Source: Thermodesulfobacteriota bacterium (lineage in GTDB: Bacteria > Desulfobacterota_D > UBA1144 > Nemesobacterales > Nemesobacteraceae). From it: DNA of 64,000 bases. The position numbers were made by a program, and so were the translations under genes. This document shows positions 31,701-64,000 of this stretch, one piece after another. The notes below the pieces were generated by a model. It did no database searches. It saw only the letters and a list, made by a program, of their open reading frames with translations, and was not told the DNA's origin. The DNA lies in the NCBI GenBank assembly GCA_965207685.1, contig OZ242294.1, forward strand, positions 1,226,677 to 1,290,676, written 5' to 3'. The stretch's first letter is position 1; the number at the start of each line of letters is the position of its first letter.

Positions 31701-33679
31701 GGCGTGTTCTCCGCCACAGAACGCGTGGCCGTGTTGGGCTGGAAGTAAGGCGCATTGTTTGACGGCGGCTCTACACGCGTCACAAGGTCAGAAATTGCGT
31801 ACGCCATTTTCCCGGAACCGCGCCGGTCCGTGTAGGTCACCTTTGCCCTCAGGTAATTGTCCACATCGCCCGATACCGGCGTGTAGGCGTTGCCGTTCGG
31901 GGTCCCGCTTACCGAACCCCAGCCATTCGTCCGGCTGGTTGACTTCTCCCATGTCCACGTTTCACCCGATACTGAACCGTCGGGATCGATTAGAGTCGCT
32001 TCAAGCTCCGTACCCACCTGTGGCTGCCTGGAAGAAAGAGTCACCTCTCCCTCTTCCTCCACATCGGTCACATTAATAGTCACCGTGGTCGTAATTTCCG
32101 AGGTCCTGTCCGTGACTTTAACCACCACGCCCGCATAAGAACTTTTGGTCTCGTAGTCAAGAGGCGCCTTGGTCTTTATCTGCCCGGAGGAATCAATATC
32201 AAATGAAAGTTTAGATACATCATCGAGCGAGTAGATAAGTGTTTCGTTTTCCGGGTCCGTAACCGCAATCGGTGTCCCGATGTCTACTCCAGGCCCCGTG
32301 TTCTCAGCCACAGAAAACATGTCCGGTGGGGGATCAGGATCAAAATAGGGCGCCCAGTTTACTGCCGGCACCTTTCCAGCGGACTCCGCCTCCGCGCTTT
32401 TATCAGGACCGTGGCCATCGGTATAGGAGGCCACCGCCCGCAGGTATTTATCTTCATCGTCTTCAACATTCGGGTCGCTGTCGGCAACCGGCGTGTAGGT
32501 TGCAGTCGTGGAACCGCTGCTCGTGGCACCGGTGATCGGATTCCAGTTGGTTTTGTCAGCTGACCTATACCATGTCCACTCCACATCCGTTATAGAACCG
32601 TCAGGATCAGTCAAAGTCGCAGTCAGCTCCTCATCTATTGCCAGCGTGCCGGACAGGGTCACCGTTCCAGGCTGATCTGGAGGAGGTACGCCTTCCGTCG
32701 TCGCGCTTGCTATGTTTGAAGGATCGCTTGTGCCCTCGGAGTTAATAGCAGAAACCTGGTAATGCCGCGTGTCTCCGGGAGAAAGACCGCTATGTGTATA
32801 CGTCGTGTCTGTATTGCCAGTGTCGTCTTCAAGATTCGTCCAAGAATAATTTGGGGGACCAGATGTTGAGACCTCGATTTTGTAGCCTTCCACGTAGGAG
32901 TTGGGAGCGCGCCACTTAAGCACAATCATGCTCTGCCCTTTAGGTTCCGCTTCCAGGTTCCTAGGCGGATCCGGAGCAGTGATGGAACAGACAACTCCCG
33001 CGTGTTCGAAGCTTCTGCAATTATGGGTGCCGACAGGAGTAGTAGACTGCCCAGCGCCCCTAGGACAATCAATCAGCCTCGTTTCAGTGCCTACGCAGAG
33101 AATATCGTCAAGCCAGAATTCATTGTTAGTCTTGTAGTCGCCCTTGGAAGAATCGATTATTGAAGGGCCGTCAAGCTCTAGCAGCGTCTTCGCGAATTCC
33201 GGCATATAATCCGAATGCTGACCACCTGTATCCTTCAGCTGCTTGCACGCGATTTCTGCGTCTTCGTCGGTGAAATAGTCATCGCATATTCCTCTCCACT
33301 CGGCATCGGTACCGTCATTATAATAAACTTCAAGCCTGCCTATGTCGGCCGTGACCGTACAGCTACTCGTGTTCGTGGTATCGCACAATCGAAGATCCCC
33401 GTTGCTCTGCGCATGCGCAGTTACGGAGAAAAACGCCAGCGGCAACAGTACTGCCAGCAGAAAGCAGACCCTGTCTCTCAGGCTTTCTGTTTTCCCAAGA
33501 AAGGGCGGCGGACGCAGAAACCCCCGCCCCTTCAGACAAAAGAGCGTTAACAGGGTTTCAAGTGCCTTGGTTTTTGCCCGGTTCGGGACTGGCTCAGTCT
33601 TTCTCTCGTCCGGATACGGGGACAAGAGGGATTTTCGCTGGCGCTCTACCGAAGAGACAAGCCGTTTATGTTCCACCAT
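28715..33679 (-). CDS. giant cell-surface protein: signal peptide, SRCR-like domain, FN3, 2x(Ig-like + cadherin repeat), 4x FN3, C-terminal autotransporter-like outer-membrane beta-barrel
   Basis: 1654-aa ORF. The hydrophobic signal segment LLAVLLPLAFFSVTAHA lies ~70 aa into the ORF, so the true start codon is uncertain. The SRCR consensus blocks are GRLEV.YNDG..WRGICDD, FWLDDILCVGTE..L.DCP and HNC...EHAGVVCS. The cadherin-like blocks are VAEN..PG..IG..V.A.DPD...L.YSL...FAID..SG.I.T...LDYE. Four FN3 repeats follow (WDAPDNGGSPI..YEY....GLTNGETY.FRVRAVN). The C-terminal ~520 aa are beta-rich and end in ...RGEVNF. Confidence 0.8.
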   Translation of the reverse strand: MVEHKRLVSSVERQRKSLLSPYPDERKTEPVPNRAKTKALETLLTLFCLKGRGFLRPPPFLGKTESLRDRVCFLLAVLLPLAFFSVTAHAQSNGDLRLCDTTNTSSCTVTADIGRLEVYYNDGTDAEWRGICDDYFTDEDAEIACKQLKDTGGQHSDYMPEFAKTLLELDGPSIIDSSKGDYKTNNEFWLDDILCVGTETRLIDCPRGAGQSTTPVGTHNCRSFEHAGVVCSITAPDPPRNLEAEPKGQSMIVLKWRAPNSYVEGYKIEVSTSGPPNYSWTNLEDDTGNTDTTYTHSGLSPGDTRHYQVSAINSEGTSDPSNIASATTEGVPPPDQPGTVTLSGTLAIDEELTATLTDPDGSITDVEWTWYRSADKTNWNPITGATSSGSTTATYTPVADSDPNVEDDEDKYLRAVASYTDGHGPDKSAEAESAGKVPAVNWAPYFDPDPPPDMFSVAENTGPGVDIGTPIAVTDPENETLIYSLDDVSKLSFDIDSSGQIKTKAPLDYETKSSYAGVVVKVTDRTSEITTTVTINVTDVEEEGEVTLSSRQPQVGTELEATLIDPDGSVSGETWTWEKSTSRTNGWGSVSGTPNGNAYTPVSGDVDNYLRAKVTYTDRRGSGKMAYAISDLVTRVEPPSNNAPYFQPNTATRSVAENTPPGRDIGAAVTATDPDSGDRGSLTYSLGGTDAASFALEDQTSGQIQTKAALDYEGPKRIYTVTVTARDPGGLTGTITVTINVTDVNENGSPDSNTKVPSQVRNPVPSSALPGAPSGLMAMSGDGRATLNWDAPDDGGSPIEHYEYKVDDGEWTSTGGKTTSYTVTGLTNGETYRFRVRAVNSVGPGPASEPASATPATVPSAPRNLEGTRGNGEVALSWDAPDNGGSPIGRYEYRIDGGPWVSTGGTTTSYTVTGLTNGETYGFRVRAVNSVGPGPASEPASVTLTTVPGAPRNLMATRGNGEVALSWDASDNGGSSIERYEYKVDDGEWISTGGTTTSYTVTGLTNGETYGFRVRAVNSVGPGPASEPASATPATVPGAPRNLTATPGDQRVTLVWERPADNGGLPITGYEYSQKEENGSYGGWTSIDQSGSRETNETSYTVAGLENGTVYSFRVRAVNDVGPGDPSAEATAEANTTEIRRARRASLRILPTFGRTMLRNSVDALTWRLDSVLSGSYERTGMFRLMDQHANLHEVIGTDIWDDPDQWEALSLEELLYGSSFIIEAGVMLRKPKEHPQEDPGGYVGKHPEEDPKGHVGESPQEDSADNNMWVDEDQKPVIVERRGSIGFWGKADYNNFSVASDEWFKWDGRIVSGYMGVDRWLNEKVLTGLSLSLTKGDFDYTDTTPGEVGRGDYYIKMVSVSPYVSWFLSEDVYLWSALGYGRGQIDIDDEGARKVATSDLSYKSVAAGGSARVFDVGDTTFSLKSEAFKVWMDVEGDDYMIEEMSLGVHQLRLSMEGSYEYRFASGTWFNPLVEVALRHDGGDGETGTGVEIGGGFLYENPSLGLSISGRGRWLAAHSSEEFSQWGVGGTVIFDTGADKRGVLFSVAPEWGDTSSGVDSLWERGVDGLSSEDGGGNDMHLDAEFGYGLAALGGDGLLTPYSGLRLGGDGRQHYRLGSRLDLGRSASLSLETERRQSDTAEPEHGVMLRGEVNF
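30545..31350. repeat. three tandem near-identical ~267-270 bp units (each encoding one FN3 domain) inside the giant surface-protein gene
   Basis: Near-identical ~110-nt stretches (GCCGGCTCGGACGCGGGGCCGGGACCAACGCTGTTTACCGCCCGCACCCTGAA...) recur at about 30596, 30861 and 31128. The ORF track also shows duplicated frame-shifted peptides at 30495-30716 and 30783-30983. Confidence 0.8.
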
Positions 33680-43058: not shown

Positions 43059-43132
43059 GCGGGTGTAGCTCAGCTGGCCAGAGCATTGGCTTCCCAAGCC
43101 AAGGGTCGCGGGTTCGAATCCCGTCGCCCGCT
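43059..43132 (+). tRNA. tRNA-Gly (anticodon CCC)
   Basis: Folded by hand: acceptor stem GCGGGTG/CGCCCGC, D-arm GCTCAGCTGGCCAGAGC, anticodon stem TTGGC/GCCAA with loop TTCCCAA (anticodon CCC at 43093-43095), T-arm GCGGGTTCGAATCCCGT, discriminator U. Confidence 0.8.
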
Positions 43133-43245
43133 CTCACTGCCCAAAAACTGTATTTATTCCGGTCATCACGTTAATATCAAATTTGCCCAGTTTCTATTGA
43201 TAATTTGACCTGAGTTCTATTGACAATTTCACCCTTTTTGATAAT

Positions 43246-44559
43246 GTGTTCAGAAAATTATACGGAGAAAAAACGGTGTCTGAACAAGAAGAGATTTTAC
43301 CGCGTCATTTGTCGACGAAACTCGATAAGGCCCTAGATTCGGCAAGAATAGTAAACATTGTAGGTCCTAGACAGGCTGGAAAAACTACATTGGTACGGGA
43401 TTTGCATAAAAACGGCAGATTCATCACGCTTGACGACGAATCAATGCTCATGGCTATAGAAAACGATCCTGGCGGACAACTCGAAAGCCTGACGACTGGA
43501 CTAGAGACGGAACCTCTGATAATTGACGAAATCCAACGCTCAAAGGGGCTAGTTCTGGCGATCAAAAAGAAAGTCGACGGCAATCGCCGTAAAGGTCAGT
43601 TTATCCTGACGGGTTCTTCAAATATTTTCATGTCCCTTGGAGTCGCCGACTCCCTGGCCGGCCGAATGAGAGTGCTCAAGCTATGGCCGCTGACTGTCTC
43701 GGAAATCAGGAAGCGAAACCCTTCGAGGATACTGACGTGGGCCTTGCGGCCTGCACCGAAACTCGCCGCGCTACCAACACCTGAAAAAACGGACCGTAAG
43801 TCTTACATCGACATAATTCTGCGAGGCGGCTTCCCGGAAATTTTCCCCTTGGAGGCAGAAGAACGGCAAGAATATTATCGGGACTATGTTGACGCCATTG
43901 TGGACAGAGATGTGGCCGACGTTCTTCCCGTACGGAAAACGGATGCCCTCCGACGACTTATCAATCAACTGGCCGTGAGAACCGCTATGGAGTTGAACCT
44001 CTCTGAAATCTGCGAACTGGTCGGCGTTCAACGTAACACGCTTGAGCAATACCTCGAGGTGCTCTTGCGCCTGTCCGTGGTAAACAGGCTGGGAGCATGG
44101 GCGTCGGGCGAATCTAGGCGAGAAATCAAAAACGCAAAAAACCACTTTGTAGACACGGGGGTCGCCTGCGCTCTACGCAGACTGACATCCGAGAGTTTTC
44201 ACGCGGACGCAAATCCAGCTGCATTAGGTGGTCTGCTCGAAAGCTTCGTCTATTCAGAGTTGCTACGTTCAGTTCCGTATCAGGATCAGAATTTTCACTT
44301 TTATCACTGGCGAGACAGTCGCGGACGCGAAATAGATATTGTGGCTGAATCCGCAACTCGACTGATCTGCATCGAAGTGAAGGCTTCAACCACGATCTCG
44401 CCTCAGGATTTGAAGCACCTCAAGTGGTTTGCGAAAAAAGGGCCTGGAACCACCAGAGAAGTGATAGGCTTGGTATTTTATCTCGGCCAAGAAAAGCTCA
44501 GCTTCGGAAACGGCATCTTCGCTCTGCCGGTCAGCATACTGTGGAGCACCGTGTCTTAA
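43246..44559 (+). CDS. AAA+ ATPase with DUF4143 C-terminal domain
   Basis: Walker A GPRQAGKTT, Walker B LIIDEIQ, 437 aa. Confidence 0.75.
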   Translation: MFRKLYGEKTVSEQEEILPRHLSTKLDKALDSARIVNIVGPRQAGKTTLVRDLHKNGRFITLDDESMLMAIENDPGGQLESLTTGLETEPLIIDEIQRSKGLVLAIKKKVDGNRRKGQFILTGSSNIFMSLGVADSLAGRMRVLKLWPLTVSEIRKRNPSRILTWALRPAPKLAALPTPEKTDRKSYIDIILRGGFPEIFPLEAEERQEYYRDYVDAIVDRDVADVLPVRKTDALRRLINQLAVRTAMELNLSEICELVGVQRNTLEQYLEVLLRLSVVNRLGAWASGESRREIKNAKNHFVDTGVACALRRLTSESFHADANPAALGGLLESFVYSELLRSVPYQDQNFHFYHWRDSRGREIDIVAESATRLICIEVKASTTISPQDLKHLKWFAKKGPGTTREVIGLVFYLGQEKLSFGNGIFALPVSILWSTVS

Positions 44560-51672: not shown

Positions 51673-53184
51673 TTATTTCATGAACTGATCAATGTAAACC
51701 ATCAGCCTACTCTGAAATCCCCAGATCGTATCGTCGGCTGTGGAACCGTCTCCGGCTTTAGCTTCAAGCAGGTCTTGAAGACCGTCTCCAGCGAGTACCA
51801 AGCTTCCGATGAAGTCAAGGTTTACGCCTGGATGAAGCGTCCAGGTAAGCGTTCCCTCAATCTCTGTACCGAGATAGTCGTCAACTTCAGTCGCTCCAAT
51901 ACCCGAACCGAAAAGACCGCTGTCAAAAGCCGAAACCGCATTAGTCTCGTCGTTCCAGGCAAACAGAACCTGAGGAGTTAAAGACAAGTTCTCAGCAAGA
52001 TTCACGTTCGCGTACGCCCTAGCGTAGATAGCGTTTATTACGCTTCCCTCTATCTGGTAGATAGTCGGAATGACGTGCTTGAAGAGAAGGTTATCTACGT
52101 TATAGGCCGGGCTGAACGGAAGGGCATTACCTTCAATCGTCAAAAGCGTATCACCGTCATCACCCTGCGCCCAACCGGCTTCAATACCTATAGCACTTAC
52201 CTGAGCCATCGTTGAAGGATAGATCTCAAGGCGGCCCGCCATGTCGAAAGCGTAGTCAAACTCAAACGCTGCCCCTGTAAAATCGGGCCCTCCTAAAGCA
52301 CTTGTATCTCCCGCTTCGAGTTCTCCCCCTCCGAACATCTGGACCTCATAGGTAAGGCTCCAGTTAGCAGCCTTAAGCACTAGAAGACCTGCATATAGAG
52401 AAGTGCGGTCAAGATCCCAATTGTAACCTAGGCCGGGGCTGAATACGTCGTTCTGATGCAGGTACGGGAATCCGTACGCTCCAACGGTCACGTTTACATC
52501 TCCCATCTGCTGGTTGTAAATACCCGCCGCGGCAAGTATGTCATAACCTGTACCGCTTGTACCGGCGAATAGGCTGGTTCCCTGAGTAAATACATCGGAC
52601 ACGAGAACCAGAGTAAAGGTTCCGGCACCCGCCGGGAAGGACTTGAGCCAAAGCAACCTGTCAACCACGAAACCGAGGTCCGAATGCGGATCATGTCCTC
52701 CGTTTGCGAGAATTCCGAGGCCCCAGTCAAAAGGCTGGCGTCCTACTCTAACAAAACCAAGGTTGTTCGGAAGAACTATGTCCGCGTGAAGCATGCGAAC
52801 GTTAAAATATCCGAAATCGTCGTCAAAGGTCTTAGCCCCTGTCAGAACCGCACCTCTGAAACGATCGGCTGGCCTCAAGTCTGAGAGCACCACGCTGTCG
52901 TTGTCACCAAAAAATCCGCTGGTAACACCACCCCATACCATGTTGTTCGCAACATCGACCTGAGCCCTAACGGTAACCGCATCGCTCAAGCTCAACTGGG
53001 GGGTGATCCTGAGTGTTGTGTCAGTGATATTAATCCTCTCACCGCCGGCGGTAGCATTGTCAATGACACGAGTTCTCGTTCTCATATAGCTCGGAAATCC
53101 GCCAAGCGACCAGTCTATCGCAAATGACGGAACCGACATGCCGAGAACGGCGAAAAATATAATAAGCCATCTGGCTTGAATCAT
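51673..53184 (-). CDS. uncharacterised outer-membrane beta-barrel protein
   Basis: 503 aa. Signal peptide (IFFAVLGMSVPSFA), Gly/aromatic-rich alternating strands, C-terminal ...IDQFMK. Confidence 0.5.
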   Translation of the reverse strand: MIQARWLIIFFAVLGMSVPSFAIDWSLGGFPSYMRTRTRVIDNATAGGERINITDTTLRITPQLSLSDAVTVRAQVDVANNMVWGGVTSGFFGDNDSVVLSDLRPADRFRGAVLTGAKTFDDDFGYFNVRMLHADIVLPNNLGFVRVGRQPFDWGLGILANGGHDPHSDLGFVVDRLLWLKSFPAGAGTFTLVLVSDVFTQGTSLFAGTSGTGYDILAAAGIYNQQMGDVNVTVGAYGFPYLHQNDVFSPGLGYNWDLDRTSLYAGLLVLKAANWSLTYEVQMFGGGELEAGDTSALGGPDFTGAAFEFDYAFDMAGRLEIYPSTMAQVSAIGIEAGWAQGDDGDTLLTIEGNALPFSPAYNVDNLLFKHVIPTIYQIEGSVINAIYARAYANVNLAENLSLTPQVLFAWNDETNAVSAFDSGLFGSGIGATEVDDYLGTEIEGTLTWTLHPGVNLDFIGSLVLAGDGLQDLLEAKAGDGSTADDTIWGFQSRLMVYIDQFMK

Positions 53185-53525: not shown

Positions 53526-54248
53526 TCATCCCCGCCCGAAAAAACGAAGCGTAACGAAGGGTATCAGGCTAAGCACGGGTGAAAGCGCAAGCTGCGCCGT
53601 AGCGCTTTTCCGAAGAGGCTCCTTCATCGCCATTATCCCCGAGTAAAGCGAAGCAGGGTTCCCAACCAACCCTTTTACGGTCTCGCAGAAGAAAAACACG
53701 TTCCGGGGACTCAGCAAAAAAACCAGCAGGTTAAATACCAGAAATATCAGAACTCCCTTCGCAATAAGACTCAGCGTCCTTCCCCAGACAAGGGAGTTAA
53801 CAGCTTTCCTCGTGAGGTTTCCCCCATAATACCTGGCAAGCATTCCCCCGAGAATGACCGTCATCATGATGCTTATCCCGAAACCGAAAAGAAAGACCAG
53901 GCACTTACTGAAAAGATCGGCCGTCCCCCCGAAAGCCGGAATCACCTCCTCCCAAACCCCCCAGGCAAGCGGAAGAAGCAACCCCAGAAACGCCCCCTCC
54001 CAGAAACCGCTTCGAAAGCCCACCATGAAAAAAGTGAGCACCCCCCTCATAGTGAGGAAGTCAGAAGGTATGTCCTGCCCCGTGCGCTCTATTATATGGT
54101 ACTGCTGTATCTCCGATATCGCGTCTATAAGGTTGCGCGGGGACGCGTGAGGCGAAGACGATATGGGGGTGAAACCTCCCCGCCCGCCGCTCACGGCCTT
54201 TTTCCTCCACATATAAAGTGGGAGAAAACAGGAGGTTTCGCGACCCAC
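53526..54248 (-). CDS. hypothetical integral membrane protein
   Basis: ~5 hydrophobic segments. The start is uncertain. Flanked by AT-rich DNA. Confidence 0.4.
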   Translation of the reverse strand: MGRETSCFLPLYMWRKKAVSGGRGGFTPISSSPHASPRNLIDAISEIQQYHIIERTGQDIPSDFLTMRGVLTFFMVGFRSGFWEGAFLGLLLPLAWGVWEEVIPAFGGTADLFSKCLVFLFGFGISIMMTVILGGMLARYYGGNLTRKAVNSLVWGRTLSLIAKGVLIFLVFNLLVFLLSPRNVFFFCETVKGLVGNPASLYSGIMAMKEPLRKSATAQLALSPVLSLIPFVTLRFFGRG

Positions 54249-54548
54249 AGGTCAACTGGAACAGTCGCCCCGGGAAATTTTTCGGAAAAAGGTTTGGACA
54301 TTTGAAGGGAAATGTAATACTAAGCCTTTTAAATGTCCAGACTGCCATAACCAGCCGAATCAAGATTCACTCTTCTTTCCTATGAGTTGGGCAATTAAAA
54401 TAGCGATTTGAAGATTGCGTGCGCAAACTTGAATTCTGAATTCAAATATGTAGAATTGAAATCAAAGGTTCCTCCCTGATGACAAGAACCCAAGGGGTTC
54501 TCTCCGGTAACGGAGTAGTTGGGGAGGTCGTTTTTTTAGATTTACCCT

Positions 54549-55208
54549 CTAATAATAGTATCTCATTCCACTTCGGAAAATACTGAATTCGCTTCGAATC
54601 CCCTCCTTTATACGATCATAGTATTCTGTCTCACCCCTCTGCCATTTCCGAAACACAGCCCAGCAGCAGTAATCCGCGACCTGCAGTCCGTAGTGCGAAC
54701 GCGACGCGTGATGCAGGATGTGATATCTCCTGCCCTGCGGCAACATCTTCGCCAACGCGAGCTGGACACCTTTTTCAATCGCCCGCCTTTTCTTATTAAC
54801 CGGAACCGTATCAGTTATTACTATGACATCGTCAGCGTCCTCCCCCAACTGGGGAACAAGGAATTTTAACAGGTATCCGAGCATTTCCGGGTAGAAGCGC
54901 TTTACATCCTGAAGGGCCGGGCCGGTTTTTCTTTTCTCAACTACAAGACAGTCAATACGCATGCTTCCAAGATTTCTGGCGATCAGATCAAATATGCTGT
55001 TGCGGACGTGAATGTTGTCTTCTGAGCAGTGGAAATACTCCATCCCCAAGCCGTATTCGAGACAATCGTGTCTGTAGGCGTCAAGCTTCTGGTATATAGG
55101 AAACGGTCGGCGCATACTGATGCTCGTCAATATAAAGTAAGGCGTTCCGTTTGTGCTGAAGTCGAGATTGCCCGCTTCATCAAGAAAAATGTAAGTGCAG
55201 GGTGTCAT
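54549..55208 (-). CDS. DUF3800-domain protein
   Basis: Start at MTPCTYIFLDEAGN. The N-terminal YIFLDE.G and C-terminal GLQVADYCCWAVF are the two hallmark motifs of DUF3800. Confidence 0.6.
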   Translation of the reverse strand: MTPCTYIFLDEAGNLDFSTNGTPYFILTSISMRRPFPIYQKLDAYRHDCLEYGLGMEYFHCSEDNIHVRNSIFDLIARNLGSMRIDCLVVEKRKTGPALQDVKRFYPEMLGYLLKFLVPQLGEDADDVIVITDTVPVNKKRRAIEKGVQLALAKMLPQGRRYHILHHASRSHYGLQVADYCCWAVFRKWQRGETEYYDRIKEGIRSEFSIFRSGMRYYY

Positions 55209-55550
55209 ATTCTTTCCTTCCACAAGACCCGCCCAGTCCGGCAAAATCGTAAAAAGCGTGGAAACCGGACTGGATACCCGCTTCAAGGCTTGATCCAACT
55301 CCGCTTATTTCCAGTGAACTCCTTTGCCGTTAACAATCAAGAAGCGGCTGGTTGAAGTAGAAATTCAGCAGATTGATCTTGGAAAATACCTGATCGGCAT
55401 TCTCAAACCAATAATGTTTTTCAGTAAGGAAAAACCTGATTCTCTCGCACCCTGTGGACTAACCGGATTCGCCGTTCCTGGAAAATTTCTCAAAAAAAGA
55501 TATGGACATTCGGTACTAATTGTAATACACTGTATTTCAAATATCAAAAA

Positions 55551-56963
55551 ATGGACAAAAAAATAAAGGATGCCAACAGGAAAAACCAAGAAAAGACCCG
55601 GGAGAAAAACCCCTTGATCGGACTCCGCGTAAAGAAACTCAGCGACATCCCTCCGCCCGCGGGAATAGCCATAGGAGAGGGCGTCGCGCTTGACTGCGAT
55701 CCCGAAACAAAGCCCGCCCCGGTAACGGTTCCCGACGCAGACCGCGAGGGACACATATTCACCATGGGCGCCACGCGAAGCGGAAAGACCCGCCTCGCCG
55801 AGGGCATGATAGAGCACGATATAAGGGCGGGGAGAAGCATCCTGTGGATAGACCCCAAGGGGGATAACGCTATTTTCTCAAAAATAGTGGCCACAGCCAG
55901 GGAAACAGGAAGGGAAGAGGATCTTCTTTTCTTCTCCCCGGTTTTTCCCCGCTACTCGGTAAAGATAGACCCTCTCTCTCACTACTTCATGCCCGAGGAG
56001 GTCGTTAACCACGTCGTCTCGGGAGTACGGGTCCGCGAGGAGTTCTACTTCAACATAGCCTACGAGGTGACGCTCGTCGTGGTGCAGGGACTCATGCTGA
56101 TATCGAGATCCCTCGGGGAGCGACCTATGTTCACCTTCCGCAGGATAAAGGAGAACATAGGCTACAGGGAACTCGAGGGCCTTCGCGCCCAGATAGCCGA
56201 GATAGACGATCCCGAGGCGGAGGAGATCCTCATGAACCTCGACCAGATCCTATCCTCTCCCCAGGACTACTTCTCCAAGGTCTCCTCAAGCCTCCGTACC
56301 GTGATAACGTCGCTTAGCTCGGGTTCGGTGGGAGAAATCATCGGCAAGGACACATCAAACCGGTTCATAGAGCGCCTTGAGGCGGGAAAGAGAGTGATAC
56401 TCGTCGTGCAGACAGGCTCACTTCTCACCAGGAAAACGGCGCATATAATGGCGCGGGTGCTTCTCTCCATGGTGCAAAGCTTCGTAGGCAGGGTGCTGGC
56501 TTCTCACCGGAAGATCGACCCTCCCTTAGCAGTGTACGCAGACGAGGCGTCAAATGTCCTTTACTTCGGGATAGACGACCTTTTCAACAAGGCGGGCGGA
56601 GCCGGAGTGTGGATTCACATGCTGACCCAGAGCAAGCAGGATCTCGTGGCCGAACTCGGCCCAGCCTACACGGGCAAGATACTCGACAACACGAACACCA
56701 AGGTAGTTTTCCGCGTTAACGACCCCAACACCGCAGCCTACGCCTCCCGCATGGCCGGGACGAGAAAAAGATTCTCCCCAATAATGAGTCTCGGCGGGGG
56801 TCTCAGCTTGAGGGAGATAGAGGAGAGCAGGGTGCCGCCCGAGAGCTTCCTTAGGCTCGGGCGAAGGGAGTTCTACGCCTTTACCTTCGACGGCATATAC
56901 AGGGGCAGGACCCTCGATGTGAGTCCGTGCGAGGAAATACGGTTCCCGGAGATAAAAAACTGA
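55551..56963 (+). CDS. traD: type IV coupling protein-like ATPase (TraD/TrwB/VirD4 family) without N-terminal transmembrane anchor
   Basis: Walker A GATRSGKT followed by ILWIDPKGD, Walker B VYADEAS, a TQSKQDL sensor, and a TraG-D_C-like NTNTKVVFRVND. The N-terminal 60 aa are charged and not hydrophobic. Confidence 0.7.
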   Translation: MDKKIKDANRKNQEKTREKNPLIGLRVKKLSDIPPPAGIAIGEGVALDCDPETKPAPVTVPDADREGHIFTMGATRSGKTRLAEGMIEHDIRAGRSILWIDPKGDNAIFSKIVATARETGREEDLLFFSPVFPRYSVKIDPLSHYFMPEEVVNHVVSGVRVREEFYFNIAYEVTLVVVQGLMLISRSLGERPMFTFRRIKENIGYRELEGLRAQIAEIDDPEAEEILMNLDQILSSPQDYFSKVSSSLRTVITSLSSGSVGEIIGKDTSNRFIERLEAGKRVILVVQTGSLLTRKTAHIMARVLLSMVQSFVGRVLASHRKIDPPLAVYADEASNVLYFGIDDLFNKAGGAGVWIHMLTQSKQDLVAELGPAYTGKILDNTNTKVVFRVNDPNTAAYASRMAGTRKRFSPIMSLGGGLSLREIEESRVPPESFLRLGRREFYAFTFDGIYRGRTLDVSPCEEIRFPEIKN

Positions 56964-56986
56964 TGAAGGAGAAAAGGAGAACCAAA

Positions 56987-58360
56987 ATGAAGTACCTACC
57001 GCAAGTGGCGATCAGCTGGGAGACGGCAGCCGCGTTTTCGCTTCTCTGCTTCTCCCTGGGCGCGACCTTCTGCGCGCTTGCGCTAAGACGCAGAAGAGAA
57101 AAACGAAGCGGACCCGAGACAATAGAGTTCATAACGGCTTCGGCGGCGAGAGCCTCGCAGAGACAAGACGGCGCAGAATCAGGAACCATAGGAGCTCTCG
57201 CGGAGAGCCTCTGGCTGAGAAGCGATCCCGGGCTTGCGGTGCTCTCGGATTCAGAACCTTTGGTCGTAACCACCTTCAAAAATCCAGAGACCCAAACTTT
57301 CTGGACAGAAGAGATAGAACCCAATCGCCGACTCTTTGAGAAAAGACGCGAACTTGCGGTAATAGAGAGGGTTCTCCTAGAGCTTGATGAACATGGCCTC
57401 TGCTCAAGTGTCGTTTCTGGGGACGGGAAAAGCGCGTTTTTGCCAACTGCAAAGAGATTCTCGCGCGTTACCCTGCTTGACCACTCGCTTCGGGTAGCGC
57501 GGTGCATGAGGGGAATATACGATTCGCTCTACACGGAGAGAATTCTCTACGGGAAGCATCTCATCGCCGCTCTCGCCCACGATGTCGGAAAAATGGAGCA
57601 CCTGCGCCCCGAAGACAAGCGCTACATAAAGGATGACCACGCGGCGGCATCGGCAAGAGCGCTTAACGGTTGGATAATGGAGTGCGGGGGAGAAAAAGCC
57701 GCTTTTGAGTTTCGCTCCGCGGTGGACGCCGTCAGGAACCATCACAGAAGCGCAAACGCACCCGATCCCATTCTGGAGAACCTCAAAAGAGCGGATACGG
57801 CGGCACGGGAGGAGGAATTCTCGGGCGTGCGCAAAAAGCCACGCCCGGCGGCCGCGCCCGACGGCGGCACGGATGCCGAACCACCCGGGTGGCTCCTTCG
57901 CGACATGCCCCAGATACTAAACGACCATGTGGGGCCCGCAATAAACATGGCGGCACTCGAGGAGGCTCCCTTTGCCCGGGCGATCTCCTCCACAAACGGG
58001 ATCGTCTACGTCGATCCCCACTACCTTTTCGACGGCGTTAGGGAGCATATGGAGCGGGAGGAGATAGCGGACATGAGATTTTTCGACCCGTCCCGCCCCG
58101 CGGAGCTTCAGGCAAAGCTCCTGGTAACAAACTCACTTAAATCCCGCAACTGGGTGGGCGAAGGAGTTCGCGACGGCTACTACGCTGCCTTCTGGAATTA
58201 CGAGTATAGGGGGAAGAAGGTAAGAAAAGGCGGTTTCTGGATACCCGTTTTCGCGGAAGCGTTTGAAGTGCCGCTTTCCGAACTTGAAAAAAGAAAAAAC
58301 GCGGAGCTTCGCCGGATCACTTCCGTTGGGCCGTGTCTTGCGCGGGGACGGAAAAAATAA
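56987..58360 (+). CDS. membrane-anchored HD-domain (metal-dependent phosphohydrolase) protein
   Basis: Start at MKYLPQV. It is preceded by GGAGAAAAGGAG and follows the coupling-protein stop. One transmembrane helix (AAAFSLLCFSLGATFCALAL), then HD motifs H...HDVGK. The region upstream of this start is arginine-rich. Confidence 0.55.
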   Translation: MKYLPQVAISWETAAAFSLLCFSLGATFCALALRRRREKRSGPETIEFITASAARASQRQDGAESGTIGALAESLWLRSDPGLAVLSDSEPLVVTTFKNPETQTFWTEEIEPNRRLFEKRRELAVIERVLLELDEHGLCSSVVSGDGKSAFLPTAKRFSRVTLLDHSLRVARCMRGIYDSLYTERILYGKHLIAALAHDVGKMEHLRPEDKRYIKDDHAAASARALNGWIMECGGEKAAFEFRSAVDAVRNHHRSANAPDPILENLKRADTAAREEEFSGVRKKPRPAAAPDGGTDAEPPGWLLRDMPQILNDHVGPAINMAALEEAPFARAISSTNGIVYVDPHYLFDGVREHMEREEIADMRFFDPSRPAELQAKLLVTNSLKSRNWVGEGVRDGYYAAFWNYEYRGKKVRKGGFWIPVFAEAFEVPLSELEKRKNAELRRITSVGPCLARGRKK

Positions 58361-58424
58361 ACTAAACTCAACCGGGCGGCAAGTGTCTGTCCGAAAAAAA
58401 ACACATTTTACTGGAGGAAACAAA

Positions 58425-58838
58425 ATGAAAAATAAAAAAACAGGCAACGTTACACTCGTCCTTGGCCAGACACCGTACGGGCAGCTCGAGCGGGAAGCCC
58501 GCAAGAGAGCGCTCTCGCCGGGAGACTATCTCGAGATGCTGATAGAAATGGATCACATCTCCAACACGGGAGGTGACCCGGGGGAAATGGTGTCCGTGTC
58601 AATATCGGAGAGACACTACTCCCTTCTTCGCCGGGAAGCGGAAGCTGCCGGACGCGGGGCGGACAAGAGCGCCGAGATGATAATAGGCATCTCGGCGGAG
58701 ATGCTCCCTGAGAGGCCGCTTTCGAGGGAGAGGTTTGACGCCGTGGTGGAAGCGTGGGGAGGTGTCGATTTTCCGAGCGAGAGGAAACAGGGAAACGCGC
58801 AGGAGCGCGGAAACTCTCTTCAGAAAGCCTCGTCCTAG
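58425..58838 (+). CDS. small protein with two tandem ribbon-helix-helix-like repeats (TraY-like relaxosome accessory protein candidate)
   Basis: 137 aa. Two beta-strand + helix units (VTLVLGQTPYGQLEREARKRALSPGDYLEMLI and VSVSISERHYSLLRREAEAAGRG...MIIGI). It sits immediately upstream of the pilin gene, as traY does in F. Confidence 0.45.
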   Translation: MKNKKTGNVTLVLGQTPYGQLEREARKRALSPGDYLEMLIEMDHISNTGGDPGEMVSVSISERHYSLLRREAEAAGRGADKSAEMIIGISAEMLPERPLSRERFDAVVEAWGGVDFPSERKQGNAQERGNSLQKASS

Positions 58839-58962
58839 TGACTGAAGAGGCGGGGAATCTTCATTTCCCCGCAGAGGCTTAACGACAAAATCTATATGGC
58901 ATAACAAAAAAACGGACATTTGCCGCACCTGCAATCAAACGCGAAAAAATATCTCACAACAC

Positions 58963-59310
58963 ATGAAAACCACATTACTAAGGAGGCTGGCTAATATGAA
59001 AACATACGAGGCAAGATTTCCCCGCGCCGTCGCAGCCGCGCTTTTAACGGTGGTCGCGCTGGCACTTTTTTTCCCGGACACGGCACTCGGGGGGACCACG
59101 GGCACGGAGTTCCAGAGCATCTACGACAAGGTAAAGGGATGGTCCACCGGCTACCTGGGGAGGCTGCTTGCGCTCTGCACTTTCATAATAGGTCTCGGGG
59201 CTTCCATCATGCGCCAGACCCTTTTTCCCGCGCTCACGGGAATAGGAGTGGCGCTCGTGGTCTCGCTCGGCCCGTCACTCATAGAGGGAATCGCCACGGG
59301 AACGTTCTAG
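58963..59310 (+). CDS. traA: F-type conjugative propilin TraA
   Basis: The leader ends ...VVALALFFPDTALG (compare F TraA ...AAVLMMFFPQLAMA). The mature part is ~72 aa with two hydrophobic segments. The position before traL-traE-traK-traB fits. Confidence 0.65.
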   Translation: MKTTLLRRLANMKTYEARFPRAVAAALLTVVALALFFPDTALGGTTGTEFQSIYDKVKGWSTGYLGRLLALCTFIIGLGASIMRQTLFPALTGIGVALVVSLGPSLIEGIATGTF

Positions 59311-59577
59311 ATGAGAACGAGAATCCCGAGATACATAGACGACCCTCCCCAGATATTCTGGTGGGAGATCGATGAAGTGGCGCTTTTCAGCGGGGCGTTC
59401 GTGATCGGGGCGCTTTCGGGTCAGACGCTCGGAGGACTGCTCGCGGGCTTTGTCCTTTCCTGGCTGCTTGAGCGCCTCAAATCCGGGCGGGGAAGCGCCT
59501 TTCTCGTTCACCTTGCCTACTGGTACGGTCTCTCGGGGGTAAAGCCCGAGAGTCACAGAGAGAGGTTCTTCGAGTGA
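59311..59577 (+). CDS. traL: TraL-like type IV conjugative transfer protein
   Basis: 88 aa. RIPRYIDDPPQIF...DE...LKSGRGS...YWYGL pattern matches F TraL (R.P..LD.P..I.G...DE ... LK.GRG ... YW..P). One transmembrane segment. Confidence 0.6.
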   Translation: MRTRIPRYIDDPPQIFWWEIDEVALFSGAFVIGALSGQTLGGLLAGFVLSWLLERLKSGRGSAFLVHLAYWYGLSGVKPESHRERFFE

Positions 59578-60164
59578 TGCTGATACGCACGTTCCGGGAG
59601 AGATGGCTTAACCTGGCCCGGGAAAACGGCCTGCTTCGCTTCGCCGTGGGGGCACTCTGCGTAACGGTAGCGCTTCAGGGCTGCCACATGAAAAAGCTCT
59701 CCGAACGCACGACCGTGCACGTTCACGTGCCCGAATACATGCAAAAGGACTTCACCGTCAGCGCAGCGGGAACGGCTTCGCTCGCCTACACCGAGCAGTG
59801 GGCGCTCAGTCTCCTTCCCTTCGTAGCGTCCTTCACCGCGGAAACCGTGGACTTTAACATAAGGCAGTTCCTCCTCTACGTTCACCCCGAAAGCTACGAC
59901 CCCATTTCCGGATTCCTGCTTGAAAAATCAAAAGAGATAAAAACAAGCGGAGTCGCCCAGGCTTTTTTTCCGAAAACGGTGGCCATGGAGGAAGAAGGAA
60001 CGGTTGTGGCGGTAAGCGGACAGCGCACCAGGGTAGTCGGTAACGTGGTGACCGACCAGAGGGAGGTTGTCTACAGGATCCACTTCGAACTGGGGGTTAA
60101 CAACCGTCCGCTCGTAACCGAACTTATCGAAAACGAAGGAGGGCAAGGTGCAGATGAATACTGA
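59574..60164 (+). CDS. traE: TraE-like (VirB8-like) inner-membrane conjugation protein
   Basis: 196 aa with an N-terminal transmembrane helix, in the position and size expected for traE. The sequence match is judged weakly from memory. Confidence 0.45.
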   Translation: MMLIRTFRERWLNLARENGLLRFAVGALCVTVALQGCHMKKLSERTTVHVHVPEYMQKDFTVSAAGTASLAYTEQWALSLLPFVASFTAETVDFNIRQFLLYVHPESYDPISGFLLEKSKEIKTSGVAQAFFPKTVAMEEEGTVVAVSGQRTRVVGNVVTDQREVVYRIHFELGVNNRPLVTELIENEGGQGADEY

Positions 60165-60870
60165 TCTTCCCTCGCGCACTCTCGCTGTCTTCGTCGCGGC
60201 ATTTTTTGCTTTCGCCACTACCGCAACCGCTCTCACCATAGATCTCGGAAAAACCCGGGAGGAAGAACCGATATCGATCGGGGTATCCCGCACCGACACA
60301 AACAGGATCAAACTTCCGGAAACCATAATAAACGCCTTCAGTTCAAACGGGTCGATTGACGTAAAGATAATCGACCGCTCGGCGCTTGTAAGAGCAGAAG
60401 ATCCGGCGGAACTAATAATCTTGACCGGGAAAAGAAGGCTAACCCTGCTGCTTTCGCCCGAGGATGGCCCCTCGCGCACCGTCATAATGAGGGACGAAGA
60501 CTCACCGTCCCCAGATCCGGCCAAGGAGGCAACAGGAAGCGCAGAGCCCCTACCCTACGAAAAAGCCATAACGGAACTCGTGCTCTCCCTGGCCTCGGGT
60601 TCCTCCGATACGGAAAAAACCTCAGAAAAAGAGCAGGAATTCTCACCCTCGCCCTCCCTTTTCCTCGCACGCCACGCGGAGGCGGCATCGCCTCCCCTTT
60701 TCGCCTCGCTCTACATGGTAAGAAACGGGGGATCCAAAAAAGTCGTTCTCACGGAAAGCATGTTCTCCTCAGACCCCGAAACGGTAGCCGTGGGCATGGA
60801 GCGGGACGAGCTTTCGCCGGGAGAGTCCGCGCGGATCTTCGTGGTCACGAAAAAGGAACCTGGGCGATGA
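60148..60870 (+). CDS. traK: TraK-like (VirB9 N-domain/secretin-like) periplasmic protein
   Basis: 240 aa with a signal peptide (AVFVAAFFAFATTATA), in the position and size of traK. Family call by synteny. Confidence 0.45.
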   Translation: MQMNTDLPSRTLAVFVAAFFAFATTATALTIDLGKTREEEPISIGVSRTDTNRIKLPETIINAFSSNGSIDVKIIDRSALVRAEDPAELIILTGKRRLTLLLSPEDGPSRTVIMRDEDSPSPDPAKEATGSAEPLPYEKAITELVLSLASGSSDTEKTSEKEQEFSPSPSLFLARHAEAASPPLFASLYMVRNGGSKKVVLTESMFSSDPETVAVGMERDELSPGESARIFVVTKKEPGR

Positions 60871-62025
60871 TCGGGAAGATACGGAAAATCTACGCCGAAA
60901 GAAAACGCCAGACTCTCGCCGCGGCGACCGTACTGTCCGGGTTTGCCATCGTGGCCCTGGTTCTGCTCCTGCTCGGAGGAGAGGAAAAGGGACTGCTCGG
61001 GGAGAAGAAAACGCAGGGAAGCATAAAGATTCTGCGGGGAGTGGATCTTGCCCGGGAAAAATGGCGCATAGAGGGGGAAAAGCGCCTGGGAATGATAGAG
61101 ACCGAACAGAGGGAGATAAGAAAAGAACTGGAAGCAATTTCCTCCGCGCTTGGGGAGTTCAAGAAGAAATCTTCCGAACCGTACCCCTACCCGCCTCCAC
61201 TCGTCGGGAACGAAGCCTCACCCGAAGCGGAGTTCCCTCCCGCTCCGCTCCTGCCGGGCGCGGCCGAAACGCCGCCCGAGCCCCCGAAAAGACAAAACCC
61301 GATACGGGTTTTCTCTCCCATCGGGGGCATCCCGGCCGAGGAATCGGCCCCAGAGCCTGCGCTTGTTAACTGGATTCCCTCGGGAAGCTTTGTTCCGGGA
61401 GTACTCCTAAGCGGCCTCGACGCCCCCACAGCAACCGCTTCCTCGCGAAATCCGCATCCCGTGCTGATACATCTCGTGGAGGCTTCGCGCCTGCCCGGCC
61501 TGCGGCGTATGAACATAGCGCGCTGCCACGTGACGGGAGCAGGGTACGGACAGCTCGCAAGCGAGAGAGCGTACGTGAGGCTCGAGAGGATGGCGTGCGT
61601 GCTTCGTTCGGGAGACGTGATAGACACCAAGATAAAAGGATATGTGGCCGGAGAGGACGGAAAGACCGGGAATCCGGGGAAGGCTGGTTTCAAAGCAGGG
61701 AAAGATGCTCTCGCGGGGAATCCTGGCCGGCTTTGCCTCGGGCTTCGGCGAGGTGGTTGAAACTTCGAATTCAACATCCGGGGTGGTCGCGGGCGGAACA
61801 TTTACCGTGAGTTCCAGGAGTTCCCGGGATCTTGTGAAGACAGGAATCGGGGGCGGGGCTGGGGAAGCCGGAAGGCTTCTCGCGGAGTACTATCTCAAGC
61901 TCGCCGAGGAGGTGTTTCCGGTAATAGAGATAGACGCGGGGCGCCGAGTCGACGTGATCATAACCGAGGGGATGGAGCTTGCCCCCAGAAAAACCGACTA
62001 CGCCGCAAGGAAGGAAAAGGGATGA
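60867..62025 (+). pseudogene. traB: TraB (VirB10-like) gene with apparent +1 frameshift near 61650-61760 (two overlapping ORFs 60867-61760 and 61642-62025)
   Basis: The first ORF has an N-terminal transmembrane helix plus a Pro-rich linker (PYPYPPPLVG...PPAPLLP...PPEPP) and the start of a beta-domain (IDTKIKGYVAGEDGKTG). The second ORF continues in another frame with the VirB10-like tail (LSRGILAGFASGFGEVV...GRRVDVIITEGMEL). Confidence 0.6.
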
Positions 62026-62525
62026 GGAAATTCGCCCCGTTCCTTATTTTTTTCGCTCTGTTCGCTACGGCCTGCGCCGGCGGGTCGTCGCGCTACGGCT
62101 GCCCAGCGGCATCGGGTCATTCATGCAAAAGCGTCTCAGAGGTTTATGCCGAGACAATTTCGGGTCGCAGAAGCGGTGCGGATCCTCTCTCTCCGGGCAA
62201 CGGAAAAAGCGCGCGCGAAGGCGTGAGAAAAAAGTTTCTGAAAGGCAGCGCTTTCCGCCCCGGGAAAAATGAGCGGAGCGAAGCGGGAACCACCCAGACC
62301 GCGCAACCGGAGAAAACGATGCCCGTTTATGTTCCCCCGCGCACAATACGCCTCTGGATAGCCCCGTGGCAGGATGCCCGGGGCGTCTTTCACTCGGGCA
62401 AATACGTGTACCTGCTTTCGGGCAGGGGGCGGTGGACTATAGGCGGCAAAGCTGTTCCGCTCGGAGAGTCCGATAGAGGGTATCCGCAAAACATCCGCCT
62501 CCGGGGAACCGGGAGGGTTCCCTGA
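62022..62525 (+). CDS. traV: TraV-like outer-membrane lipoprotein
   Basis: 167 aa. Signal peptide with Cys (LFATAC) and a C-terminal IRLWIAPWQDARGVFHSGKYVYL motif typical of TraV. Confidence 0.6.
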   Translation: MRKFAPFLIFFALFATACAGGSSRYGCPAASGHSCKSVSEVYAETISGRRSGADPLSPGNGKSAREGVRKKFLKGSAFRPGKNERSEAGTTQTAQPEKTMPVYVPPRTIRLWIAPWQDARGVFHSGKYVYLLSGRGRWTIGGKAVPLGESDRGYPQNIRLRGTGRVP

Positions 62526-64000
62526 TGGGCGTTGCGAAAGAGCGGCTGCGGGAGCTTGCCGCAAGGGATTCGCTTTCGGATTACCTTCCCTATGTGGCAT
62601 GGGAAGAGGGGATGTACGTTCTGGCCGACATGTCGCTCGGCTTCATATGGGAAATAAACCCGCTTCTTTTCGCAGGAGAGGACGCAAAGAGGATTCTCGG
62701 CGGAATGCTCGGCAACCGTGTGCTTCCACCGGGAACCTCGGTCAAGTTCCACGTGTTTGCCTCCGAGCTCATATCCCCGTTTTTCCCCGAGGAAGAAACG
62801 GCGCAAGCCAGGATCTGCCGGGAGATCGCCGCCGAAAGAAAGCGGCTTTACACCCTCGAGATGCGCGACAGAGTCGGGACCCCCGCGAGGGATTTCCGGT
62901 TTCTCGTGTCGGTGAGGATTCCTTCCGGCTTCGGAAAAAAGAAAGTTGCGGAATCCGTGTGGGACAAGCAGACGGAGGACACCCGCAAGCTCGGGGCGAA
63001 CGTGGCGGGGGTTCTCAGTTCCGCGCAGCTTTACCCGCGCGACCTCCCTCCGGCCGAGCTGATACTCGTCCTGCGCGAGGCGCTTAACCCCGATGCGCGC
63101 TGGTATGATGACCCTTACTATCTCGGCACCGGCGGTCTCTATAACCGAAACGATGAGATAAGAAACCAGATAATAGACCGAGAGACGATGATAGAGGTGC
63201 GGGCGGGGGAAATAAAGCTCGGGGACTCTCACCTGCGGGGATATTCCCCCGCATCCATGCCCGAGTACTTTTCGCTCGACGAGTTCCACGAACTGCTTGG
63301 AGATCCGTTGCGGGGACTCTCGCAGGTGCCCGTGTATTTTTTCCTGCAGGCGGGATTCGTCGTCCCGGAGAGAAAGAAGGCCTCTCAGGTAAGTGCCAAG
63401 GCCGTCATGGTGAAGCAGCAGAGCTTCGGGCTCGTGACGAGATTCATTCCAAAGCTCAGGAAAAAAGCGGAGAACTTCGACTTTTTCGTAAACGCCCTTG
63501 AGGACGAGGACCTGGTCATGGGATCCCTGAGCCTCTTTCTCCGGACCCGAAGCGACGAGGAGGCCGAGAGGGTAAAGGAGATGGTAACGGGGATATGGAG
63601 GGCCAGAAACTTCGATCTTCGCGAGGAAAAATACATACTGCTCCCCCTCCTGCTCGAGGGCCTCCCGCTCGGCTCGGAGCCCGCGTTCGTCCGCCTTCTC
63701 AGGCGGAATTCAACGATGCAGACCTCGGCCGGGGCATCCATGCTTCCCGTCATGTCAGACTGGAAGGGAACGGGCTCGGGACCTCTTACCTTCATATCGA
63801 GAAGGGGACAGATAATGAAACTTGATCTTTTCAGCTCAGCTTCCAACTACAACTGCGCGGTGTTCGCCCAGTCGGGCTCGGGAAAGTCCTTTCTAACCTC
63901 GGACATGATCACCGGATATCTTTCGGAGGGGGCGCGGGTGTTCGTGATAGACATAGGCCGCTCATACGAGAAGCTCTGCGGTCTCGTGGGCGGTGAGTTC
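62524..64000 (+). CDS. traC: TraC (VirB4-family) conjugative ATPase, N-terminal ~490 aa (continues past window end)
   Basis: Translated by hand from the ATG at 62524: MGVAKERLRELAARDSLSDYLPYVAWEEGMYVLADMSLGFIWEINPLLFAG ... NYNCAVFAQSGSGKSFLTSDMI...VFVIDIGRSYEKLCGLVGG. This parallels F TraC (GFMLEAIP ... CGTSGAGKTGL ... FDMGDGYKSLC). Not in the ORF track because no stop falls in the window. Confidence 0.85.

Follow-up and report, generated by a model that had tools for sequence, protein, structure and literature searches.

Described F-type systems and the Dadabacteria cluster

The closest described counterparts of the system reported here are the transfer regions of the F plasmid, of the SXT/R391 integrative conjugative elements (ICEs) and IncC plasmids, and of the gonococcal genetic island (GGI) of Neisseria gonorrhoeae. 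The GGI exports chromosomal single-stranded DNA and does not transfer itself (PMC6736028, PMC12857230). Cleavage of the origin of transfer (oriT) by its TraI protein requires an HD motif, an alternative 3H motif, Y212, and H215, and an N-terminal helix serves membrane association (PMC6736028; PMC12857230). We analyzed a 64,000-nt stretch (the window) of contig OZ242294.1, from a Thermodesulfobacteriota genome of the order Nemesobacterales, that ends within an F-type (mating pair formation class F, MPF-F) type IV secretion system (T4SS) gene cluster. The cluster is probably a DNA-transfer system that has become fixed and is vertically inherited in a Dadabacteria clade, with a non-canonical HD-type processing module. 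A literature search for T4SSs or conjugation in Dadabacteria or Nemesobacterales yielded no relevant publication.

The cluster has in common with the F plasmid its gene families and the gene orders traA-L-E-K-B-V-C and trbI-traW-traU-trbC-traN-traF-traH-traG, with a putative ribbon-helix-helix (RHH) gene in the place of traY. Unlike F, it has no TraI (MOBF) relaxase and no TraM or TraJ, its type IV coupling protein (T4CP) gene precedes the pilin gene and encodes no membrane domain, it includes a gene for an S26 (TraF/TrhF-like) peptidase, and the whole is chromosomal and apparently fixed. Features in common with SXT/R391 and IncC elements are the T4CP, for which SXT_TraD is the best NCBIfam match, the TraA family (NF041281), an S26 peptidase gene after traC as in IncC pKHM-1, an HD-type nuclease gene beside the T4CP gene, and variable hot spots in the tra region with defence genes as well as large genes of Ig-like or adhesin type. 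In contrast to those elements, the T4CP is 150 residues shorter and falls far below the family cut-off, the HD-domain protein is half the size of MobH and lacks the 3H motif and TraI_2_C, traA comes first, the order T4CP-HD replaces mobH-traD, and there is no integrase. By sequence comparison, the mating pair formation genes are a deep-branching MPF-F lineage with affinity to the SXT/R391-IncC group; TraC shares no more than 33% identity with any TraC from plasmids in PLSDB.

The GGI is also a chromosomal F-type T4SS, in which TraD stands beside an HD-type relaxase (TraI) with an N-terminal membrane-associating helix. It offers the best functional analogy for the role proposed for the present system. 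However, GGI TraI is a true MOBH protein (850 aa, with 3H plus HD motifs), whereas the HD-domain protein here is much smaller and has no 3H motif. The GGI is also horizontally acquired and found in only some strains, whereas the present cluster is conserved in at least 19 species and has a soluble T4CP. Three plasmids, pPRO1 (Pelobacter propionicus), pIAE1 (Trichlorobacter lovleyi), and pHRV44 (Nitrosophilus labii), encode the same short T4CP and HD-domain protein, accompanied on pIAE1 and pHRV44 by an adjacent homologue of a membrane protein termed mem240 here. They differ from the present locus in being plasmid-borne, in carrying Rep, ParM, SSB, and topoisomerase genes, and in their varying gene order.

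Ten collinear and mostly overlapping open reading frames (ORFs) occupy the forward strand from 55551 to 64000. A first-pass annotation, made without database searches, had assigned a T4CP, an HD protein, and TraA, L, E, K, B, V, and C in that order to an MPF-F gene set. Profile searches against Pfam and NCBIfam agree with the genes, their order, and the type; TraC (PF11130), the F-specific core proteins, and the TraA pilin all match their profiles. These matches to tra families are far above chance level, with TraL, TraE, TraK, TraB, and TraV each above the Pfam gathering score (TraK via its C-terminal domain). TraA scores 79 bits against NF041281 (cut-off, 50), matches TrbC/VirB2 weakly, and has a leader and two hydrophobic segments. 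Its start is probably 58996, rather than 58963 where the ORF opens, as placed by a ribosome-binding site (AAGGAGG-N8-ATG) conserved in the alignment of relatives. The window sequence ends inside TraC, with the Walker A motif at its end, and the genes downstream are known from the loci of relatives only.

Relatives (loci designated by L numbers) were identified by scanning one genome per species for the window's TraC fragment. This yielded 19 species genomes with 75%–97% TraC identity, all of them metagenome-assembled genomes (MAGs) of Candidatus Dadabacteria/Thermodesulfobacteriota; many come from sponge metagenomes and many are complete chromosomes of 1.5–2.4 Mb. The closest, L001, is 95.5% identical to the window in DNA over 55481–64000. 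After TraC it encodes a TrbI_Ftype protein, a TraF_Ti/TrhF-like signal peptidase of family S26, and TraW; Calx-beta/PKD genes are inserted next, and TraU, TrbC, and the beginning of a TraN-group ORF follow. L009, which has few insertions, continues with TraW, a small protein, TraU, TrbC, TraN, TraF, TraH, and TraG, and all seven of these Tra proteins are also encoded in L025–L027. The further tra genes that had been predicted past position 64000 were therefore seen in L001, L009, and L025–L027, and the window probably holds the first third of a complete MPF-F cluster.

The gap between traW and traU is hypervariable. Across L001–L027 it holds HipA/HTH toxin-antitoxin, AAA_21 with RloB, GmrSD, DruA, and AbiEii genes, a methylase with NgoFVII-type restriction genes, and Calx-beta/PKD adhesin-like genes. 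As a hot spot for defence genes, it would mean that this architecture, known from SXT-type ICEs, outlasts an element's loss of mobility. A small conserved ORF (135–190 aa) with no family match usually lies just before traU.

Gene order (outer-membrane protein [OMP], mem240, T4CP, HD protein, small protein, TraA-L-E-K-B-V-C) is the same wherever a relative's locus reaches. The left flank was compared in five fetched relatives, with gene calls reaching up to 10 kb on either side. A TolC-like gene, the OMP gene, and mem240 precede T4CP in four of these five contexts, with occasional insertions, and gene content differs only beyond TolC. The right flank past TraG was compared, through the TraH neighbourhood, in three genomes (L025–L027) that span the whole divergence range. 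TraG (939–1000 aa) is followed within 0.1–5.5 kb by a GT2 glycosyltransferase gene in all three, and by an aminotransferase gene past GT2 in both of the loci that reach that far. Only AAA_14/DUF4143 ATPases, a PIN protein, and two ORFs without assignment lie in between. No integrase, excisionase, or recognised relaxase occurs between TraG and the conserved right-flank genes in L025–L027, and the interval from TolC to T4CP in the window likewise lacks an integrase and att-like repeats. The remainder of the window carries chromosomal genes, as first annotated (DnaB, ribosomal protein S1, GlnD, purH, AccA/D, phosphoglycerate mutase, tRNA-Gly).

Tra proteins are 45%–88% identical between genome pairs, never above the GT2 and aminotransferase proteins (76%–89%), and the closer pair is the same in both sets. 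In comparison with L020, TolC DNA is 92%–95% identical and tra DNA about 95%, with 77%–89% for the OMP gene between them. The codon usages of tra and housekeeping genes are closely correlated (r = 0.94; two housekeeping halves compared with each other, 0.86). Pairwise ratios of nonsynonymous to synonymous substitution (dN/dS) are 0.08–0.5 across all genes, including 0.09–0.14 for T4CP, about 0.09 for TraC, and about 0.2 for the HD protein. Because the tra genes co-diverge with their flanks, have host codon usage, are under purifying selection, and keep a conserved location, we consider it probable that the cluster is an old, vertically inherited chromosomal system that selection has maintained at one spot in at least 19 Dadabacteria species.

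The coupling protein, HD-domain protein, and mem240

The T4CP matches TraG-D_C (2e-12), T4SS-DNA_transf, and TrwB_AAD_bind above their cut-offs. Its match to SXT_TraD (1e-47; 163 bits against a cut-off of 366) runs from profile position 162 on, and it aligns to residues 158–615 only of IncC TraD, with the nucleotide-binding domain present. The protein has no hydrophobic segment and so no N-terminal transmembrane domain. Its length is identical in all relatives, and it is 58%–63% identical to short T4CPs of two distant loci (L029 and L031). The start of the HD gene overlaps the T4CP stop codon. On the other side, mem240, with at least four hydrophobic segments, adjoins T4CP in every relative whose locus reaches it; it is 34% identical to mem239 of L031 (E 1.6e-26) and homologous to mem238 of a third distant locus, L030 (E 2e-20). 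Given the linkage of T4CP, the HD protein, and mem240, the feature extends leftward to 53526.

All or most of this combination recurs in varied arrangements. L031 reads mem239, small ORF, T4CP (449), HD, small ORF, S26, TraF, TraH, TraN, ORF, TraU, with an HD protein about 31% identical to that of the window. L029 has T4CP (468)-SLT-HD with ParM-like and toxin-antitoxin genes and no mem240 homologue, and L030 has HD, small ORF, mem238. Among the plasmids, all of them complete, pIAE1 carries SSB, SLT, ORF, T4CP, HD, small ORF, mem238; pPRO1 carries SLT, ORF, T4CP, HD, TraF, TraH, and its mem240 homologue is encoded about 32 kb from these genes; and pHRV44, on which the order is mem, HD, T4CP, has TraU and TrbC at a distance of a few kb and a short HD protein (186 aa). 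F-type tra genes stand beside the module on pPRO1 and pHRV44. All three plasmids are typed as non-mobilizable by MOB-suite, meaning that they have no known relaxase. A T4CP without transmembrane domain, an HD protein, and in most cases mem240 are a conserved unit across phyla, often beside F-type tra genes and on elements with no known relaxase. A plasmid of Desulfosarcina BuS5 was uninformative, as it has a rearranged F-type set and matches only an N-terminal fragment of the HD protein. EAL, GGDEF, and response-regulator genes lie directly beside T4CP, HD, and mem240 on pIAE1 (L033) and pHRV44 (L041), although the two plasmids are unrelated; such neighbours hint at control by cyclic-di-GMP, or at participation of the HD protein in nucleotide signalling.

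In the HD protein, a single N-terminal transmembrane helix is joined by a variable linker to an HD phosphohydrolase domain, behind which lies a conserved C-terminal domain. Homologues with at least 50% identity were found only in Dadabacteria-like MAGs in a word-based search. An exhaustive profile search gave a family of 669 cluster representatives at 50% identity (450 with E ≤ 1e-10), most of them 400–600 aa long and covered over both domains, and Pfam HD was matched in 39 of 40 family members. Residues invariant in members of 21%–32% identity are G145, S149, H174, H206-D207-x-G209-K210, Y221, H226, H260-H261, D278, R282, E285, and N328; these include the HD motif (H...HDxGK...H...D: H174, H206-D207-G209-K210, H226, H260-H261, D278). 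Profile-profile comparison (hhalign) of the family with seven MOBH N-terminal domains gave a probability of 93.6% (E 2e-7), in which H226, preceded at five residues by the invariant Y221, aligns with an invariant MOBH histidine. The C-terminal domain (57870–58360; residues ~300–465) carries the motifs AFS..G.VYV.P, GYYG..F, and P..AEAF..SELE.RK. It matched no Pfam, PDB, or MOBH profile, and AlphaFold2 (AF2) with 27 sequences gave no usable model.

To our knowledge, MOBH is the sole HD-hydrolase-type relaxase family. Membership of the HD protein in MOBH is not claimed here, as it has no TraI_2 or MobH match, no 3H motif, and no TraI_2_C domain. No relaxase family was matched in the window's ten ORFs or in the gene calls of relatives up to 10 kb on either side. 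Because of its linkage to T4CP, its conserved Tyr, His, and HD residues, and the absence of another relaxase in these loci, the HD protein is a credible functional analogue of MOBH and a candidate relaxase or DNA-processing nuclease.

Proposed role and competing explanations

We propose that mem240 tethers the soluble T4CP to the membrane and that the HD protein, membrane-anchored and translationally coupled to T4CP, would be the nicking or DNA-processing enzyme in the manner of MOBH relaxases. It might act at one of two conserved non-coding sites, the block at 55480–55550 or the motif at 58913–58927. The machine would transfer or export chromosomal DNA, in an Hfr-like or GGI-like way, instead of moving itself; chromosomal DNA is the proposed substrate because genes for an integrase or for excision are absent from the cluster.

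The first-pass annotation had instead read these genes as the left-hand border of an integrated plasmid or an ICE of the usual kind, whose relaxase, integrase, and att site would lie beyond 64000. The full conjugative gene set, including a T4CP, would fit such an element, as would the variable defence cargo inside the cluster, which resembles that of SXT/R391 ICEs, and the differing gene content left of TolC; in this genome, the sequence past 64000 lies outside the window. In relatives, however, the cluster ends in TraG and gives way to conserved chromosomal genes with no integrase or recognised relaxase, and the right-flank genes are the same in genomes whose Tra proteins differ by 25%–55%. 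Neighbours were the same in all genomes that could be examined on either side, and codon usage is host-like. The tra DNA is no more conserved than the flanking TolC gene, and the left side has neither integrase nor att-like repeat, with an ATPase, not an integrase, following the tRNA-Gly gene at 43059. We regard the edge of a mobile element as improbable. A decaying remnant, non-functional in this genome and perhaps eroding across the clade, kept by inertia in a reduced symbiont genome, is also unlikely, if less so. TraB is interrupted by a +1 insertion (an extra C) at ~61666, which splits it into ORFs 60867–61760 and 61642–62025 and its TrbI domain match into 2–98 and 93–188. The insertion may switch the system off in this genome, unless it is a sequence error; it is missing from all five aligned relatives, and TraB of L001 is an intact 385-aa ORF. 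Frameshifts or stops in core genes elsewhere affect TraB in L011, TraB and TraC in L017, TraC in L019, S26 in L012, and T4CP in L007, and L020 has several broken genes (TolC, the flanking OMP, TraK, and TraB), with a Fic gene replacing part of the OMP region. These lesions and the lack of a recognised relaxase are what a remnant would show. Yet the lesions are single and different, none is common to two loci, and the clusters are otherwise intact, as recent events or assembly errors would give; they may be such errors or recent strain-level inactivation. The broken flanking OMP in L020 suggests that sequence quality, and not decay, is the cause there. Of the 21 loci surveyed (window included), most are wholly intact, dN/dS is low in all genes (for TraB, 0.07–0.17), and retention of ~25 kb of intact genes in genomes of 1.5–2.4 Mb argues for use.

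A third alternative is a repurposed T4SS without DNA transfer, serving as an adhesive pilus or in protein delivery to sponge cells or neighbouring bacteria, with the HD protein as a signalling or nucleotide phosphohydrolase. It could draw on the lack of a known relaxase family, on cyclic-nucleotide phosphodiesterases among the structural neighbours of the HD protein, on the EAL and GGDEF genes that adjoin the module on pIAE1 and pHRV44, on the Calx-beta/PKD adhesin-like genes embedded between traW and traU, and on a giant eukaryote-like fibronectin-III/cadherin/SRCR protein encoded by the host. We give this alternative little credence; a fixed and vertically inherited DNA-transfer cluster, which draws on the T4CP linkage and the conserved residues of the HD protein, remains our preferred explanation. 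Several observations weigh against that explanation. Neither the HD protein nor 39 relatives of it match Pfam TraI_2 (PF07514) or NCBIfam MobH. The alternative 3H motif (PASExHHH), found in all seven MOBH sequences, is missing, and the region reads GxCPSVV. The C-terminal half of the HD protein alone had no hhalign match to MOBH, the signal being that of the generic HD core; comparison with one IncC MobH sequence gave no match; and the structural neighbours of the HD model among PDB chains are generic HD hydrolases. A relaxase may be encoded elsewhere in the genome. The small protein between HD and TraA has no Pfam, NCBIfam, or PDB match, and the oriT is a candidate only. Seven of 21 loci have a frameshift in at least one core gene, which could mean relaxed selection, and the right flank is known from three genomes, none of them this one.

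A bolder proposal, possible but rather doubtful, is that the HD protein founds an unrecognised family of HD-hydrolase relaxases, distantly MOBH-like but without 3H motif, whose soluble T4CP is tethered by a separate membrane protein, and that this module together with a full T4SS, and without any integration functions, has been domesticated as a permanent DNA-exchange or export organ across a class-level lineage of sponge symbionts. If true, a whole class of F-type plasmids of Thermodesulfobacteriota and Campylobacterota that are typed as non-mobilizable would be conjugative. Typing tools for plasmids and ICEs call mobility by the relaxase families already known. The occurrence of an HD family linked to T4CP in F-type clusters with no other relaxase suggests a blind spot in this typing, by which conjugative elements look immobile. 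Retention at one site in many species, under purifying selection and in genomes of 1.5–2.4 Mb, implies a host-level benefit, for which chromosomal gene exchange, DNA release, and adhesion in sponge symbiont communities are candidates. The cluster would then join the GGI as a second example from nature.

Feature coordinates, non-coding blocks, and neighbouring genes

Table 1. Features of the T4SS region in the window (positions 1 to 64,000)
Feature	Coordinates	Strand	Basis
mem240, polytopic membrane protein	53526..54248	-	conserved neighbour of T4CP; left of the genes first annotated
DUF3800 gene, variable insertion, outside core system	54549..55298	-	Pfam DUF3800 2e-13
Conserved non-coding block 5' of T4CP	55480..55550	+	alignment of relatives
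T4CP (VirD4/TraD family), 470 aa	55551..56963	+	profiles TraG-D_C, T4SS-DNA_transf, SXT_TraD
HD-domain protein, 465 aa	56963..58360	+	Pfam HD 3e-6
Small protein, 137 aa, putative tandem RHH/TraY-like	58425..58838	+	sequence pattern
Hairpin and conserved motif upstream of traA	58850..58927	+	alignment of relatives
TraA propilin, 104 aa	58996..59310	+	NF041281, conserved ribosome-binding site
TraL	59311..59577	+	PF07178 2e-22; TIGR02762 above cut-off
TraE	59574..60164	+	PF05309 7e-26
TraK	60148..60870	+	TraK_C 4e-11, TraK_N 4e-4
TraB (VirB10-like), frameshifted	60867..62025	+	TrbI/PRK13729, two pieces
TraV lipoprotein	62022..62525	+	PF09676 1e-15
TraC (VirB4-type ATPase), first 491 of ~808 residues, leaves window	62525..64000	+	PF11130 3e-52, 178 bits; P-loop_TraG

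The small protein, its start now placed at 58425, is conserved in all relatives. It had been annotated as a tandem RHH protein; the pattern behind this is that of two conserved beta-alpha-alpha-like repeats (VTLVLGQTPYGQLEREARKRALSPGDYLEMLIEMD and VSVSISERHYSLLRREAEAAGRGADKSAEMIIGISAEML), and searches of Pfam, NCBIfam, and PDB gave no match in its favour. A single-sequence AF2 model of low confidence (pLDDT 44) has a beta-alpha-alpha pattern for the first repeat. A tandem RHH protein, acting as a TraY-like accessory or regulator, is plausible from this pattern.

The non-coding block 5' of T4CP contains a promoter-like TGGACA-N17-TACACT and an inverted repeat, TAATTGTAATACA / TGTATTTCAAATA (55517–55543). 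It is largely conserved, including in the most divergent relatives, with invariant cores such as GGACATT and GTAATAC. Upstream of traA, pairing in a hairpin, GCGGGGAA/TTCCCCGC (58850–58872), is preserved by compensatory changes among relatives, and it is followed by CGGACAT(T/A)TGCCGCA (58913–58927), whose core TGCCGCA is invariant in 20 loci. Both blocks are candidate promoter/operator or oriT sites; the one beside traA may also be a terminator plus an operator, promoter, or nic region. A 1.2-kb DUF3800 cassette (54262–55530 region) is inserted in the block upstream of T4CP right after TGTAATAC, inside the inverted repeat, and is flanked by an imperfect direct repeat of ~58 nt (54262–54320 and 55472–55530). 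The window and L002/L022 alone have the insertion, whose codon usage departs from that of the host.

The OMP gene between TolC and mem240 (OMP503; 51673–53184, reverse strand) always occupies this place and encodes a probable outer-membrane protein of 503 aa with a signal peptide and no Pfam match. It is 77%–89% identical in nucleotides to its counterparts in L001 and L020, with 92%–98% for the genes on both sides, and its synonymous divergence (dS) between the window and L001 is 0.70, compared with 0.05–0.17 for tra genes. Recent transfer of the tra genes was considered as an explanation of this high dS and rejected: TolC, beyond OMP503, matches the tra DNA in its degree of conservation, and OMP503 is therefore just a hypervariable gene.

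A tRNA-Gly(ccc) gene followed by an AAA_14/DUF4143 (plus NERD-like) ATPase gene lies at 43059–44559. This pair was rejected as the att/integrase end of an ICE, as the ORF encodes an ATPase and purH and housekeeping genes intervene before the tra genes. Paralogues of the ATPase occur near either end of the cluster in relatives (L022, 713–1903; L025, 14504–15742; L027, 14526–15641 and 18529–19701).

Farther from the cluster, an IS110-family transposase gene (20221–21468) lies amid housekeeping genes, and a 615-aa ORF (26839–28686) is a fusion of an ACCA (AccA-like) domain with a carboxyl-transferase (AccD-like) domain. Eukaryote-like surface proteins have been reported for sponge symbionts, and the fibronectin-III/cadherin/SRCR protein of the window (1654 aa; 28715–33679, reverse strand) is a eukaryote-like surface protein.

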